Positions 3,085-37,626 of a DNA stretch of 64,000 nt are shown piece by piece. This DNA is from a virus. Its lineage: Duplodnaviria; Caudoviricetes. The DNA lies in the IMG/VR virus record IMGVR_UViG_3300005281_000021, positions 18,783-82,782 of that record. One strand, written 5' to 3'. Below the pieces are notes generated by a model that saw only the letters and a list, made by a program, of their open reading frames with translations, was not told the origin of the DNA and ran no database searches. The position numbers and the translations under genes are program-made. Each line of letters opens with the position of its first letter. Positions within the stretch are counted from its first letter, which is position 1.

Positions 3085-3786
3085 CTACTCCAGGAAGTAG
3101 GGCTCGTACTTCGCCCTACGCACATAGATGATCTCGCGGACGTACCCGCGGTTGATGTCGAAAAAGGACTGCCCATAGCCGGGCGATGGCTTCCTCGATT
3201 TCAGGCTGGTGCGCTCGACGTTGGAGAACCAGCGCGACGGGTCGCAGCCGGTCGTGTTCGAGCACAGGCGCCGATCCTGCAGCACACCGCTCTCGCCGCC
3301 ATTGTAGGCGGACAGGGTGAAGGCAAGCCGGTCGATCGGCGTGGCGGCGTCGCGCACGCGACCGAAGATCGAGCGATCCATCTCCACCAGCGCCAGGAGC
3401 TGGTAGTGTGGGTCGTAGCGGTTATCCCACGACCAGTCGCGCAGGCTGGCAAACTCCCGCTTCAGCTCCGAGAACTTGTCGAAGCGGATCGAGCCGTCGG
3501 CGCGGTAGGCGCGGGTGATCTGGCCGAAGCCGAAGCCGTACTCGCGGCTGGTCTTAAGCTCTGCGCGCGGATTCCAGCACCGGCTGTGCCTGAGCGTGAT
3601 GCAGGACTCCTTCTCGACCTGAGCGGCCAGGAAGGACGGTATCGGCGCGTCCGGCCACTTCTCGACCTGGATCCCGCGCAGGATCGGCAGGTACTGCTTG
3701 GCATTGGCGGGCACGTCTTGAGCGTGCCCGGCCACCGGAACCATCAGCGCGAACAGAACAGCAAGCGCGCGCAGCATGGCCGTCAA
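3085..3786 (-). CDS. Endolysin, SLT-type lytic transglycosylase with signal peptide
   Basis: QVEKES catalytic Glu, GFGQ, AYNGG motifs; hydrophobic leader ending GHA. Confidence 0.85.
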   Translation of the reverse strand: MTAMLRALAVLFALMVPVAGHAQDVPANAKQYLPILRGIQVEKWPDAPIPSFLAAQVEKESCITLRHSRCWNPRAELKTSREYGFGFGQITRAYRADGSIRFDKFSELKREFASLRDWSWDNRYDPHYQLLALVEMDRSIFGRVRDAATPIDRLAFTLSAYNGGESGVLQDRRLCSNTTGCDPSRWFSNVERTSLKSRKPSPGYGQSFFDINRGYVREIIYVRRAKYEPYFLE

Positions 3787-4091
3787 GCTCTCGCCCAGAC
3801 CACCAGAGCGAAGAACAGGATGCCGACGAAGAAAACGATCGACGACGCAATCAGCGCGGCAGGAAGGCTGCGCTCATTGATCGCCTGCTCGACGGCCTCC
3901 GTCAGGTGAATTTGCGGGAAGATGATGCGGCTGATAAAGATCGCCACGCCGGCCAGGATCGGCGCAAAGATCACCCACTCGATAAGGGTCGCCAACATAG
4001 GCCGGTCAATCCAGTACATAGCGACGAGCGCCGGCAGGATCAGGATCCACGCCGACCGGTCGAACAGGGCTTTTACACGGCGAAAACTCAT
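3783..4091 (-). CDS. Putative holin, 3 TM
   Basis: MSFRRVKALFD start with GGAG SD; three hydrophobic segments; directly upstream of endolysin. Confidence 0.65.
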   Translation of the reverse strand: MSFRRVKALFDRSAWILILPALVAMYWIDRPMLATLIEWVIFAPILAGVAIFISRIIFPQIHLTEAVEQAINERSLPAALIASSIVFFVGILFFALVVWARA

Positions 4092-4159
4092 GATCGCGCT
4101 CCATACAAACTGCGGGCTTGATGCCCGCAGAGTACGATCACGACCGACTGTTGCACGAC

Positions 4160-4765
4160 CTAGACGCCATACCGCCTGAAAGGGCTGACCCGGAACGCCA
4201 GCATGCACCGGCCCTTGTCCTCGACCTGTGTTCGGTAGAGCTTCCAACCGAACTGCAACTCCAGGCAGCGATGATCCGTGTAGTAGATCTGCCGCTCCCA
4301 CAAAAACGCCGTCTGGCCGCGGGCATTGACCGCCGTCCAGTAGCTCATGGACGGCTGCCCGGTGTCCCAGGTGTCGGAACCGTCCACGTGCTTGGTGATC
4401 TGCACGCCGGTCATGTCGTAGCCCAGAAGCCATTGAACGTAGTAGGCCGGATTGCGCCAGATCCACGCGGCCCTGGCGTACCAGCGCAGCACAGGCGACG
4501 ACAGCACGCGCTCGCGCCCGAAACGGCCCAGGAGCCAGTGCTCCTGGATCGCCGTCGGATGGCGCAGGATCAGGTCGATCTCCTGATCGTGCGTTGTGAT
4601 CCATTGCCAGTACCAGACCAGTCGCTCGCGGCCATCGTCGCCGACGCGAACGAACACTGGCAGAGCCGCGATGGGCGCCAGCACGAACGCCAACACGTCG
4701 GCGATGGTGGCGATGATCGCGCTCGGCACATAGCGCACGAGCGCACGAGCGAGTCCGGCGGTCAT
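4160..4765 (-). CDS. Hypothetical phage protein (Trp-rich, WIWRNPAY)
   Basis: Start overlaps upstream stop (ATGA); protein-like composition. Confidence 0.6.
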   Translation of the reverse strand: MTAGLARALVRYVPSAIIATIADVLAFVLAPIAALPVFVRVGDDGRERLVWYWQWITTHDQEIDLILRHPTAIQEHWLLGRFGRERVLSSPVLRWYARAAWIWRNPAYYVQWLLGYDMTGVQITKHVDGSDTWDTGQPSMSYWTAVNARGQTAFLWERQIYYTDHRCLELQFGWKLYRTQVEDKGRCMLAFRVSPFRRYGV

Positions 4766-8868: not shown

Positions 8869-8912
8869 GCAGACCTCCGGTAGTTTGGGATGATTGTCCC
8901 GTCACGACCCCA

Positions 8913-27506: not shown

Positions 27507-28175
27507 TTACTTAGCGGCGACACGCGCCTTGATGTCTGCCGGGACATCCATGCCCCGGTTCAGATACGACTCGGCCCGAGCGACGTCGTGGCCGGTCAGA
27601 CGGCCAGCGCGCATGGCATCAATAGCCTTTGCCATGAACTCGTCGGGCGTGATGCCCTCGGGCTCGGATTTCTTGAGAACGCTGGGACGTTCGGTGACAG
27701 AAACAACGGCCTTGCGACCGCGGCCCTCGCCGGCCAGCGCCTTGACCTGTTCCTGCAGGGACTTGATCAGATCGGATTGCTCCTTCAGCTGCTCACCCTG
27801 CGACTTGATCAAATCGACAGCAATGCCGAGCGCCTTCGTCATGTCAGCCTCGGTGATCTCGACGCGATGGATGAGGGACTTCACCAGCTCGGTACCGTCG
27901 ATGGCCTCGACCGTGGTGCCGTCCTCAAGCGTGAACGACAGGCTCTTACCCATCGGCTCGCCTTCGTCGTCATCGCCGTCGACATCTAGGCCGGCGTCAT
28001 CCTCGCCCAGATCGGCGTCGTCGCCACCTTCACCGCCAGAAGCGGCGGCAGCTTCGGCAGCCGCATCTTCGCCGGCAGCGGCGGCGATCTTCGCATCACC
28101 GTCCTCGTCAGCGTCGGCGTCGGGTTGAGCCTTCGCCAGCAATTCGAGGTCTTCCATGAGTTTATCGAAGCTCAT
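27507..28175 (-). CDS. Scaffold protein
   Basis: Acidic coiled coil with many (L/M)xK(S/A) sites. Confidence 0.75.
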   Translation of the reverse strand: MSFDKLMEDLELLAKAQPDADADEDGDAKIAAAAGEDAAAEAAAASGGEGGDDADLGEDDAGLDVDGDDDEGEPMGKSLSFTLEDGTTVEAIDGTELVKSLIHRVEITEADMTKALGIAVDLIKSQGEQLKEQSDLIKSLQEQVKALAGEGRGRKAVVSVTERPSVLKKSEPEGITPDEFMAKAIDAMRAGRLTGHDVARAESYLNRGMDVPADIKARVAAK

Positions 28176-28177
28176 GA

Positions 28178-29068
28178 TTATCTCCGTTTCAAAACGTGGT
28201 TCAGATCGCGCGCAAAGCGCTTCACGAGGTCAGCCGCCTGATCTGGCGAAAGGCCGAACTTGAAGGAGCAATACTCCGCGATTTCTTTGAGGCCCGGATC
28301 ATCGCCAACGAGTCCGCGGCGCAGATCATCCGAAAGCACGTCTCGGATTTCGTAGTAGTTGGCCGGCACGCCGTGCAGGGACTGCTTGCGCAGCGAGCCG
28401 CCACCTTCCAGCGTCGCCGAATCCGTCCCGTAGCCCGCCTCGAGCGCCTTCGTGAGGTTCAGGCCGTCCGGCGTCCAGGATTTCGCCAGCGCGCCGAACG
28501 GGACGGTGGCGACCATCCCCACGTGCTGGTTGACGGGCTGGCGACTAATGGCAAGGTTTGTCCACCTCACCTTCGTGACGACCGCGACCTTTTCTTTCGT
28601 CTCGGGGTCGATCTTGGCAGACTTTGCCAACACGGTGCCGCCCACGCTCGGATACCACCGGGCGGGCGGGTTCAGCTTAGTCATGCTGTCCCAAACCATG
28701 TTGGCGCGCGCAGCCAGCTGCGTATCACCGGAATACAGGCGCGCCTTAACGAAGGTCACGCCGTCCTTAAACTTGACGTCGACAGGCTGCCCAATCTCCC
28801 ACGCCTCGGGATCGGTGATGCCGTACTGGCGCGCCACCGAGGGCATAGACTTGTGGTCGATGTCGAGATTCCCGAACTTCAGGAAGTGCTCAGCGGAGTC
28901 TTGGAGCGCTTTGCACAGCACGACCTCGTTCTGCTGGTCTCTCCCTTCCTGCGACGCTTCCAAATAGATGAAGCGGTCCCCTGCTTCCTCGGCGGGAGTC
29001 GCCTTCAGCATGGACTCGATGGAGATGAAGTCGGGGACTTTCCCGAGCAGTTGCTCGTCGGTTTCCAT
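28178..29068 (-). CDS. Prohead protease
   Basis: AS.E.RDQQNE, G.LDIDH, IG.P, PSVGG, A...PVN. Confidence 0.85.
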   Translation of the reverse strand: METDEQLLGKVPDFISIESMLKATPAEEAGDRFIYLEASQEGRDQQNEVVLCKALQDSAEHFLKFGNLDIDHKSMPSVARQYGITDPEAWEIGQPVDVKFKDGVTFVKARLYSGDTQLAARANMVWDSMTKLNPPARWYPSVGGTVLAKSAKIDPETKEKVAVVTKVRWTNLAISRQPVNQHVGMVATVPFGALAKSWTPDGLNLTKALEAGYGTDSATLEGGGSLRKQSLHGVPANYYEIRDVLSDDLRRGLVGDDPGLKEIAEYCSFKFGLSPDQAADLVKRFARDLNHVLKRR

Positions 29069-35232: not shown

Positions 35233-35911
35233 CAGGCCCGCCCTGACCGTAACGCACCGCCTTGATGAGCACCGGCCCGCTCCCGGCGCCCTTCACCTGC
35301 CGGACGAACTCGGCCACCGGCACCGCTCGGATCGACCCCAGAAACCGCGGGTCGTCGTAGTGCTTCAGGAAGGCCGACCGGGCGTCCTCCTCGCTGGCGA
35401 ACCCGATCATGGCCTTCTGCTCGTCGTCCTTGTCCCACTGGCCAGGCACCCGGGTCATGACCACGTAGACGAACGGCGCATCGGCGTCCGGCCCGACGTA
35501 GCAGTCGACCGGGTCGCCATCCAGCCCCTGGGTGCCGACCAGATAGCCGTAGGGGTACAGCATCCGGATCGACCATTCGTTGCCGTCGCGGTCGCGCCCG
35601 GATCGCACCGTGCCCACCGGGCATTCGATGGCGATTTCCAGCCCCTGCCAGCGCATCCTGGGCTTCTTGTAGTTGCCGGCCTTGGCCTGGGCTTCCGTTG
35701 GCGCGCGCCAGCCGGCAGCCACCGGGTGCGGCCCGGACTTCACGAACAGAATGGGGATAGACTTGCGCATGGGTTCCTTCTTCTCGCCGCGGGCGCGCCC
35801 GGCCTTCTTGTAGGCGATGGCCACGGCCTGGTCGCGTGGATAGCCGGACAGAATCAGCTCGGCGATGTTGGCCGAGACCACCTCGTCGGAGTCACCATCA
35901 AGCAGCGGCAT
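35225..35911 (-). CDS. Inorganic-pyrophosphatase-like domain protein (polyvalent-protein type)
   Basis: GNYKK..GLEIAIE.P.G..RSG..W..YGY..T.G.DGD.VD.YVGP..DEQK.M.GF. Confidence 0.75.
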
Positions 35912-37067
35912 CCTTCTTGCCCTCCAACAGACGGCGCAGCCATTCGCCAAACTCGGCGTCCTCGCCAGGCTCGTCCTGCAGCACCGGCAGCCAGCGCCCC
36001 CGGCAGTGCGGGTGAACGAGCCCGGCGGGCACCCACCAAAGCTCCTCTGGGTCTCGAGGGACAAGGGCGTTGCCTACCCGCTTACGCGGCGCCGACGAGC
36101 GCCCGAAGTTGTCCTTCCCGACCCAAACCTGGGTTTCCGGATCCTTGTCCGGGTTGTCCGGCGAGACCACCTCCATGACCCGCCCGTGGATCCGCTTGCA
36201 GAAGCCGCAGGCGGACTTGTACTGCTCCACCCGCTCGACCTTCGTGCCGGGCGCCAGGCTGGCGATGTAGCCCTGCGTCTGGCACTCGCCGGCCTCGGTC
36301 ACCGCGATGCGCCGCCAATCCCGGTTCATGGTGCCGAAGGTGTCCAGCAGCAGCGACTGAAGGGTCTGGCCGGGCGTTCCCGGGATGCGCAGCATCTGCT
36401 GCTCGACGTGCTTCTGGATGACGGCGCGCAGCTTCTGCCGGGCGGCAGCCGAGAACGCCGTGACGCGGTCAGCGGCCCGGGTGGCGGCGAAGCTCAGAAT
36501 GGACTGCTGCAGCGGCGTGAGCGCGAACTGAGCGACCGCCTGTGTTGGGGTCGTAGGCAGGGCCGCGACGATGCGGTCGGCCTGCTTGTCGGTCAGCTTC
36601 TCGATGTTGGCCTGCACCTTGCCCATGAGGGTCGAGCGCGTCGCCAGCCATTCGGCCTCCGACTTCAGGACGTCGGCGGGCAGGTATCGCTGCACCAGGT
36701 AGTCGACCATCATCATGTAGTCGTCCAGCGTCCACTTGTGCGGCGGCAGGGCCTGCAGGTAGATCTTGACCAGATCCAGCTCCGCCGGCGTCCACCGCTC
36801 CATGACGCCAGGCGGCGCCGGCGGCGGTTTCAGGCCGGGATTGTGCTTGTGGCCGGCCATCCAGGCCTGCAGCTCATGCTGGACGGCCTCGACGCGCGTC
36901 AGCCCGCGCTCGGTGAACAGCTCGACCAGGCGCCGAACGAACGGGCTGTCCATCGGATCCCAGATCGCGTCGTCGTCGCCGTGATCGTGGATCGCCTTGT
37001 AGATTTCGGACAGCGCCCGGTTCGTCTGCGTTTCGTCCAGATTGATGACGTCGAGGAAAAGGCCCAT
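35898..37067 (-). CDS. Head morphogenesis protein (MuF-like)
   Basis: [19 protein letters not shown]; downstream of portal. Confidence 0.8.
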
Positions 37068-37091
37068 TCAGGCAGTGTGTCGTCACGACAC

Positions 37092-37273
37092 ACGAGAAGC
37101 CCGCCGGTTCCTCGGCGGGCGGGGGAAGGGTCGCCGTTTCTCGCACGGTATCGGCAAGTCCCGACGCGGGAGGCTCGCCGCAAGGGCTCACGTCTGACTT
37201 GCTGCGGGCTGTTTTTCCCGACAGTCCCGCTGCGGGGCCACGTCCAAGAGACATCCGCTCTGCCCGCTAGGGC
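37092..37273 (-). ncRNA. Putative late structured non-coding RNA
   Basis: Late-promoter motif at 37288-37295, several stems, terminator hairpin, no credible ORF. Confidence 0.55.
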
Positions 37274-37302
37274 AGCTCCATTTTTCCGTCACGACGTGCC
37301 CG

Positions 37303-37626
37303 TCAGCGTTTGACGACGATGCGCTCGGTCGCCATTCCCGGCGCCACGCCGATGAACCGGCGCTTGCCGGTCGCGTCCTCGACCAGCATCCCATCCTCGC
37401 CGTGCTCGATGAGCTTCAGGCGCTGCTCGGCGCGCTTCTTGTGGCCGAGGACGCGCTCCCACTTCACCTTGTGGCGCTTTCCCTTGGCGCACTCGACCGT
37501 GCAGCCGTGGCGCCCATGGGCCAGCACCCGGCCAGACAGCGGGATGCCGGACGGGTGCTCGAAATAAATCTCATCGCCAGGGAACACCCCGTGGCGAGCG
37601 TTCGGTTTGCTCTGCTGATCCATCAT
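37303..37626 (-). CDS. Small hypothetical protein coupled to portal
   Basis: ATGA overlap with portal stop; SH3/KOW-like beta pattern. Confidence 0.65.
   Translation of the reverse strand: MMDQQSKPNARHGVFPGDEIYFEHPSGIPLSGRVLAHGRHGCTVECAKGKRHKVKWERVLGHKKRAEQRLKLIEHGEDGMLVEDATGKRRFIGVAPGMATERIVVKR

Follow-up and report, generated by a model that had tools for sequence, protein, structure and literature searches.

The window analysed here, a stretch of 64,000 nucleotides from a virus contig of 82,782 bases, carries between its portal operon and the gene for a MuF-like minor head protein a gap that holds a predicted RNA gene. The features of this locus, together with the two flanking genes, are as follows.

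37303..37626, minus strand: 107-aa upstream neighbour, coupled to the portal gene and common in relatives whether or not they have the RNA
37280..37295, minus strand: predicted late promoter of the RNA, with the GTCGTGAC box at 37295-37288 and a -10-like box at 37285-37280
37095..37273, minus strand: predicted non-coding RNA of about 180 nt, 'family C' (29 aligned homologs, covariation, CM)
37237..37273, minus strand: variable G/U-rich 5' leader with an optional GCCC/GGGC hairpin (37273-37262), nearly absent in L076
37204..37236, minus strand: predicted H-type pseudoknot with an A-rich loop, made of S1 and S2
37236-37233 with 37220-37217, minus strand: pseudoknot helix S1, CCCG with CGGG
37230-37226 with 37208-37204, minus strand: pseudoknot helix S2, GCGGG with CCCGC, extended by CUGU (37224-37221) with ACAG (37212-37209)
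37154..37202, minus strand: long stem P3, comprising P3a, an internal loop, P3b and a side hairpin
37202-37196 with 37160-37154, minus strand: P3a, 7 bp
37194-37189 with 37168-37163, minus strand: P3b
37195 opposite 37162-37161, minus strand: A/GG 1x2 internal loop (A in 22/29 homologs, GG in 25/29)
37187-37177, minus strand: side hairpin of P3
37169..37173, minus strand: CCUCC exposed in the distal P3 loop and resembling an anti-Shine-Dalgarno sequence
37131..37153, minus strand: conserved CG after P3 (28/29), optional hairpin P4 (37148-37134, loop RCGNNAN), then CGA
37095..37120, minus strand: 3' hairpin (37120-37099, loop AGGAAC) with a weak UUCU tail, the likely 3' end
37068..37089, minus strand: separate predicted promoter of the MuF-like gene, with the ATG 14 nt after the box (leaderless)
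35898..37067, minus strand: downstream neighbour, a 389-aa MuF-like minor head protein, outside the RNA

The portal gene next to the 107-aa gene was assigned by PHROGs and Pfam. The 107-aa gene is present at 20/22 family-C loci and also at 25/38 loci with neither family C nor the second RNA family (family A, below); its product appears to be a beta-barrel-like module that in relatives stands alone or forms the N-terminus of 330-540-aa proteins. The 389-aa protein has no Pfam or PHROG match of its own and owes its name to relatives annotated as minor head or particle proteins and to Atlas look-alikes that carry Phage_Mu_F. Judged by this protein, the nearest cultured relatives are Bordetella phage PHB04, the Pseudomonas phages Dolphis, Jeremy and Touem01, Aeromonas phage ST4 and Yersinia phage fHe-Yen8-01 (49-60% identity). 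These phages encode a large terminase of the usual type. ARAGORN finds neither tRNA nor tmRNA in the window or in the 82.8-kb contig. Elsewhere among the head genes, the start region of a putative scaffold gene (window 28176-28200, upstream of 27507-28175) is strongly conserved in 21 genomes (CAACAAACGGAG-type), whereas the capsid gene start region lacks such conservation across the same genomes; the scaffold start is possibly a regulated site. It is almost certain, in our judgement, that a genuine stand-alone structured RNA gene lies between the portal operon and the MuF-like gene in this PHB04/Dolphis-like phage.

The preliminary description had noted a perfect late motif, GTCGTGAC-GG-AAAAAT, and this motif is indeed found at 37295-37280 on the minus strand. 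Within the window GTCGTGAC occurs ten times, always on the minus strand, against 3.35 copies expected on both strands, and none of 100 shuffles reached ten. Among the 14 GTCGTGAY motifs of the 82.8-kb contig, seven have an ATG exactly 14 nt downstream and two have it at 15 nt; the genes placed in this way include those for terminase, portal, the MuF-like protein, a helicase-like virion protein and protease. Such mRNAs are thus predicted to be leaderless, and this spacing, seen for 9/14 motifs, makes 37273 a sound prediction for the +1 of the RNA. A start near that position had been proposed before, and it is further consistent with the G found at +1 in 24/29 homologs. The accompanying claim that no ORF lies behind the promoter holds in so far as there is no start codon at the predicted +1, but upstream of it an ATG within the -10 box begins a MELP* frame, and from 37254 runs a frame of 126 codons. 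The longer frame is dropped by a codon-model gene caller, and the P3 lengths of the homologs (33-84 nt) preserve no frame. Across the 29 homologs the promoter consensus reads GTCGTGAY-NN-CAYACT, with A12 in 29/29, A14 in 28/29 and T16 in 29/29; the TCGTGA core served as the anchor of this alignment, the other positions being free. Behind the family-wide form, GTCGTGAY-NN-(C)AYA(C)T, with the start codon at +14/+15, the starts of portal, protease and other head or tail genes are predicted to be leaderless in most of 21 related genomes. In the window this promoter is placed, on the minus strand, at 8908, 12950, 22564, 29090, 34208, 37089, 39414, 43032, 49745 and 50285. We infer from the genes behind the motif (terminase, portal, protease) that the promoter is late, and its palindromic box near -22 together with the -10 box presumably resembles P1 late promoters. 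A further promoter motif, at window 4144-4095 on the minus strand, has no ATG at +14 and is followed by a hairpin and a gene led by a Shine-Dalgarno (SD) sequence.

Loci near MuF relatives were gathered from contigs of viral, metagenome and genome origin (the first 80 of 189 and of 133 relatives, respectively), and iterated nhmmer yielded 31 units. After removal of the near-duplicate L033 and the truncated relic L122, 29 distinct sequences remained, the window's own among them. The relic (L122:276-380) retains the promoter, P4 and the 3' hairpin; its pseudoknot and most of P3 are gone. Six more divergent distinct members (L064, L134, L151, L390, L391/L397 and L402) were recognised after model building, some of which score below significance and were assigned by position and by eye. 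The family-C CM scores the window element at 73.8 bits, the window's own sequence being part of the model. Homologous units measure 125-220 nt and invariably adjoin a MuF-like gene, 169-976 nt upstream of its start; record titles name a Caballeronia isolate and Paraburkholderia and Mesorhizobium bins as hosts. One family-C phage contig, L184, is that of Caballeronia pedi LMG 29323. The distribution is patchy. Of the MuF loci scored, 100/132 were without the RNA (two of these turned out to be divergent members), and among 30 whole records it occurs as a single copy in nine and was not found in the other 21. None of the six cultured phage records searched that share the head module contains it, and no copy outside a phage contig was found among genomes surrounding G001, 150 at the family level and 150 at the class level, in a shallow scoring of only 26 candidates per genome that was limited for one genome. 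In a FastTree phylogeny of 132 MuF sequences, family C sits on several basal branches of the PHB04-like clade, and a large derived clade without it carries a different RNA.

The family had not been recognised at first, and Rfam 15 likewise offers no match for the window element or its homologs: there is none in the window, where the best E-value matches reach 16-18 bits, far below the gathering threshold, none on the element in L032 and none in nine other loci. The blastn searches of phage and plasmid records with the element or two homologs returned short chance matches only, and two pattern scans for more members recovered those already known and further chance matches. We found no description of the RNA in the literature, but a fragment may be among the models of the most extensive catalogue of candidate viral RNAs (Fremin et al., PMC10690425, consulted in extracts), of which the two MuF-adjacent entries looked at come from other settings; in extracts of a paper on the same phage group (PMC9503643), the words 'promoter' and 'non-coding' are absent. 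As far as the Rfam and literature checks reach, the family-C fold is new; its kind, a stand-alone phage RNA with an anti-RBS loop, is known.

Is the predicted structure real? Folded singly, the element scores a z of -1.41, with 17/200 shuffles folding as well, and the family mean is -1.4. Such values would suit a locus without any functional RNA, in which hairpins arise by chance in GC-rich DNA. We regard this explanation as extremely improbable, because the structure is supported by covariation in the homologs rather than by single-sequence folding. For the 17 pairs of S2, P3a and P3b, a structure drawn from the same sequences on which it is scored, 96.2% of 470 cells pair and 13/17 pairs show double changes. 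The covariation score is 0.66, compared with 0.19 for shuffles and at most 0.13 for slid-partner controls, and RNAalifold recovers the same two helices when given no structure as input. In a comparison of 14 disjoint nearest neighbours on the tree, which limits the effect of kinship, 24/26 double changes in P3a keep pairing where 11.7 would be expected, a value reached in 0/20000 simulations.

Several stems had been drawn from the window alone. Three of them, GCGGG/CCCGC, GCAAGUC/GACUUGC and GACGUG/CGCGUC, all covary in the homologs. Two others can form in the window but prove optional, CCGU/ACGG (P4) being found in about 16/29 homologs and absent in about 13, and the 5' GCCC/GGGC hairpin being found in about 9/28 (both by eye). 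The terminator-like hairpin said to end the unit can form as well, and a GC-rich 3' terminal hairpin is present in 29/29, often with a GNRA-type loop and followed by a U-run in about 13 (by eye); the copy in the window, whose tail is UUCU, is nevertheless not called by a terminator scan. The pseudoknot, the A/GG loop and the CUCC loop were absent from the first reading. The idea of a self-contained structured RNA gene with a promoter of its own is supported by conservation, covariation, promoter conservation and the absence of an Rfam match, its transcript being a prediction. A run labelled metatranscriptomic, in fact probably DNA, yielded no contig over the element, which has no bearing on expression.

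S1 would join the loop of the S2 stem to the C-rich stretch immediately before it. In all 24 sequences with CCG upstream the loop holds CGG, and in the five with a plain C-run it holds a plain G-run; where the outer 3' base is not G, the partner is complementary (L049, L052, L112). When anchored on hand-chosen anchors, 1/20000 permutations equalled the observed match with Watson-Crick pairs and 55/20000 with G-U pairs included, whereas the unanchored version was not significant (1014 and 6647 of 10000); kinship was uncontrolled in both. The held-out members, as independent cases, pair as well, by CCC/GGGG in L390, CUCC/GGGG in L391 and GCC/GGC in L064, L134 and L151, and in L391 the S2 core has changed to GCGU/ACGC with pairing kept. 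Judging from these sequences, an H-type pseudoknot in the RNA is likely. Invariant bases are concentrated in the pseudoknot and the junction. P3a begins with G in 29/29 homologs, the A/GG loop is lost in the L030 clade, and the distal part of P3 bears none, one or two side hairpins. Family C represents a new and well-supported family of phage RNAs.

Within the otherwise freely varying distal domain, the sole conserved sequence is CUCC or its core UCC. CUCC occurs there in 27/29 homologs and UCC in 29/29, whereas the next commonest 4-mers reach 16/29 and random windows of equal length would contain CUCC in 1.8 of 29. The motif lies either in the apical loop or between one or two side hairpins, in both placements unpaired, and it is predicted to be unpaired with a probability above 0.6 in 26/29. 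A Watson-Crick partner inside the RNA exists in 8/29, without a shared location. This partner is not the A/GG loop, since one clade lost GG and kept UCUCC and two members kept GG and lost UCC. The six held-out members contain UCC in four cases; L064 and L134 lack it and keep the fold. CUCC is preceded by U or C, both of which can pair with G, in 23/27 and followed by U in only 12/27.

The position of the RNA between two units raises the possibility of a role in cis, as a leader of the MuF-like mRNA or as a terminator or processing signal of the portal operon, and the weak U tail of the window's 3' hairpin, which makes read-through possible, counts in favour of it. We nonetheless consider such a role very unlikely. 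A separate promoter motif stands beside the start of the MuF-like gene in 32/32 family-C loci, compared with 14/41 and 16/59 in other classes. In L030, L049, L052, L185 and L084 the unit starts 660-976 nt before MuF, and in L084 a reverse-strand ORF of 255 aa lies between them. A terminator precedes the RNA's promoter in about 15/31 units (by eye), and the upstream gene varies.

The slot between the portal operon and the MuF-like gene also hosts other RNA genes. A tRNA-Met is found in this island at 9/21 family-C loci with enough flank, against 5/26 and 2/38 in other classes, and five of ten inspected have the three G-C anticodon-stem pairs of initiators. Permuted tmRNA genes occupy the same slot in L032, L042 and L084, and in L032 anti-hemB lies directly upstream of the family-C RNA. 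The islands of L032 (3165-4782) and L084 (3150-4020) are long and comprise tRNA-Met, about 900 unannotated nt, permuted tmRNA and anti-hemB. L032 (about 4050-4170) and L084 (about 3240-3370) share a stretch immediately before the tmRNA that has no Rfam match.

A second uncatalogued structured RNA, family A, occurs in the same slot in 43/132 MuF loci, for example in Dolphis (L013:2755-2975) and in L014, L015, L016, L017, L018, L019, L023, L036 and others. Its features are a GGGGCUAAG loop, an internal loop of CAG/UAGUCGYA and what appear to be two or three pseudoknots; it matches neither Rfam nor the family-C model, and contains CUCC in the 3' part of 17/40 members. The notion that the RNA of Dolphis, ST4 and Touem01 belongs to family C was rejected, the family-C CM giving no match. 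Since family A occurs in cultured phages, it is directly testable. Two further observations concern related phages: L394:2236-2340 holds a different short unit in this slot, with two hairpins and a U-rich loop between two promoter motifs, and L023:2086-2137 matches the Rfam abiF RNA above threshold.

Might the RNA be part of the virion? The preliminary description had suggested a virion- or packaging-associated RNA with phi29 pRNA as a functional analogy, and a structural RNA with the portal, the MuF-like protein or the prohead as its binding partner would fit a single-copy gene which always lies less than 1 kb upstream of the MuF-like gene (169-976 nt) and which shares its promoter type with head genes. 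The replacement by family A, which takes the slot in the derived clade and co-occurs with family C in only two loci, points the same way. The likeness to phi29 pRNA consists in size, phage origin and proximity to head genes; there is no similarity, however, and family C is dispensable across the phage group. Packaging is an unlikely function because many relatives with the same head module do without the RNA: it is missing from most of the MuF loci scored (100/132), from 21/30 whole records and from 6/6 cultured phage records. Moreover, a pRNA-like ring needs self-complementary loops, and the CUCC loop has no conserved loop-loop partner (8/29, in differing places). The slot, furthermore, is a general RNA island with tRNA, tmRNA and anti-hemB. 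The proposal has therefore lost ground, and we hold a virion role to be unlikely.

Comparison with known phage and bacterial RNAs narrows the possibilities further. GOLLD and ROOL are structured RNAs of phages and prophages, of unknown function, often near tRNA genes; they span several hundred nt and form large oligomers, whereas family C has only 125-220 nt and no Rfam match. The pseudoknot resembles what we take to be the hallmarks of tmRNA pk1, an H-type fold with a GCGG/CCGC stem and an A-rich loop. Relatives of the family-C phages do carry real permuted tmRNA genes in the same island, but family C has no tRNA-like domain (T loop, CCA) and no tag frame, is missed by ARAGORN and the Rfam tmRNA models, and instead continues after the pseudoknot with a covarying stem of 33-84 nt. 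CsrA/RsmA sponge RNAs present several GGA motifs in loops; in family C we find by eye no more than one GGA each in the loop of the pseudoknot and in the 3' hairpin, and neither is universal.

A compact pseudoknot core, invariant junction bases and a fixed 7-bp helix that starts with G (29/29) and is followed by CG might also point to a new class of small ribozyme or of RNA that binds a ligand. HDV-like ribozymes, including theta ribozymes, have a 7-bp P1 starting with G, a UCC-type L3, GG immediately behind P1, and a P2 closed after J4/2. Family C has a G-started 7-bp helix and a UCC loop but arranges them in another topology, with CGG, CGU, CGA or CUG after the helix in 29/29, hence CG or CU and never GG, and with P3b nested. 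With the HDV-type elements out of place, P4 missing in about 13/29, no Rfam ribozyme or riboswitch match and no gene under the RNA's control, we deem this option improbable. Group I intron, RNase P, SRP, cobalamin riboswitch and HDV were dropped as candidates, having no Rfam match and missing core elements.

How might the RNA act? A constant unpaired CUCC that has no partner in cis is most simply read as a sequence that pairs to GGAG, the core of the SD, and such a reading fits the leaderless late starts and the translation RNAs of the island. We tentatively propose, as a possibility that falls well short of even odds, that family C is an anti-Shine-Dalgarno RNA which damps SD-led translation. 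We envision a scenario whereby the pseudoknot and the long stem of the predicted late transcript form a scaffold that displays the CUCC loop, the loop would pair in trans with GGAG ribosome-binding sites, SD-led initiation, mainly on host and early messages, would be damped, and the balance would shift toward the predicted leaderless late mRNAs of the phage. We infer each of these elements, namely transcription, late timing, pairing in trans and the effect on translation, and a seed of 4-5 nt probably needs a protein helper.

This proposal has precedents. In the portions consulted of PMC5688073 and PMC1950547, anti-RBS sRNAs ('toxic small RNA' RF02278; anti-hemB RF02837, ncS04) are stand-alone and combine an unpaired, CU-rich, RBS-complementary stretch with a 3' hairpin, as does family C, and betaproteobacterial sRNAs with such stretches slow growth (PMC5688073). 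Family C shares with RF02278 and anti-hemB the unpaired SD-complementary CU-rich stretch (CUCC in 27/29, mostly unpaired) but shows neither the double-hairpin fold nor a CM match. It differs from anti-RBS sRNAs also in its pseudoknot and long stem with the A/GG loop, in having one seed of 4-5 nt, and in being found only on phage contigs, under a phage promoter. Leaderless mRNAs, according to the consulted part of PMC9031893, need neither SD nor bS1 and profit from more initiator tRNA. T4 RegB, which cleaves GGAG SDs (PMC10931766, in part), provides a functional analogy as a phage function aimed at these sites; RegB, however, is a protein nuclease, whereas family C is an RNA gene read from sequence, the effect of which is proposed only.

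A number of findings speak against the anti-SD proposal. SDs lead the late internal genes of these phages: the scaffold gene keeps GGAG in 10/10 RNA-bearing genomes, and the major capsid gene of this phage has an AAGGAA SD. There is no depletion of GGAG SDs, which account by rough gene calls for 15-40% of the non-leaderless genes in ten genomes with the RNA and 19-27% in 11 without it. No consistent CUCC target emerged among phage mRNA start regions, the best of 41 clusters having p = 0.0024, which is non-significant after correction, and phages without the RNA are equally leaderless (21 genomes). L064 and L134 keep the fold without UCC, the base 3' of CUCC is variable, and the invariant pseudoknot core and the A/GG loop exceed the needs of a simple antisense RNA. 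Since GGAG SDs are not rarer, the scaffold GGAG is kept and a consistent target is missing, a blanket block of SDs is unlikely; if the anti-SD idea holds, the action must be selective or helper-dependent.

Alternatively, the pseudoknot, the A/GG loop and the CUCC loop may form a surface that titrates a host protein or the ribosome. Candidate partners of such a decoy would be a translation factor, for instance bS1 or one that attaches to the 3' tail of the 16S rRNA, or else a defence or toxin protein that cuts RNA. The protein-sponge RNA suggested in the preliminary description thereby stays in play as a rival. A decoy role is consistent with the clustering of invariant bases in the pseudoknot and the junction and with the retention of the A/GG loop (22/29 and 25/29), and it is unaffected by the missing mRNA target. 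According to the consulted part of PMC10931766, pseudoknots are high-affinity targets of bS1 and leaderless mRNA can do without bS1, which lends support to a decoy of this kind. No phage protein strictly co-occurs with the RNA (best 7/10 versus 0/11), which points to a host or core partner. A small helix-turn-helix-like gene, G000:C1:6652-6849 (outside the window), is present in 7/10 genomes with the RNA and 0/11 without it and may reflect kinship only. Against a decoy, no similarity was found to the 16S rRNA 3' minor domain (helices 44-45, anti-SD tail) in genes of an alphaproteobacterium and a betaproteobacterium, either by nhmmer or by CM at E up to 10. A/GG looks like the A/AA decoding loop by visual comparison alone, the L030 clade lost A/GG while keeping UCUCC, and a bS1 sponge would harm the phage's own SD-led late genes. 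The decoy reading fits the invariant core better than the anti-SD proposal does, and we consider it nearly as likely.

Returning to the anti-SD proposal, its boldest form would combine the RNA, as a pseudoknotted mimic of the anti-SD tail, with phage-borne initiator tRNA and tmRNA to switch the cell from SD-led to leaderless translation. In this speculative and rather unlikely scenario, the island would constitute a take-over device made of RNA only, and family C would be one of several new, interchangeable folds in an island that belongs to the head module.

To our knowledge, few small structured RNA families have been described from tailed phages, and fewer offer a sharp, testable handle. 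In family C strong covariation goes together with a start site that can be predicted; the minimal core measures about 75-90 nt, and a single conserved, exposed motif is open to mutation. The RNA island of PHB04/Dolphis-like phages contains at least one further uncatalogued family that is present in cultured phages. Should the RNA act as a decoy, it would have for a partner some host factor by which the growth of the phage is limited. If it does act on SD-led initiation, T4 RegB would have a counterpart made of RNA, and leaderless late mRNAs would be tied to the take-over of the host.
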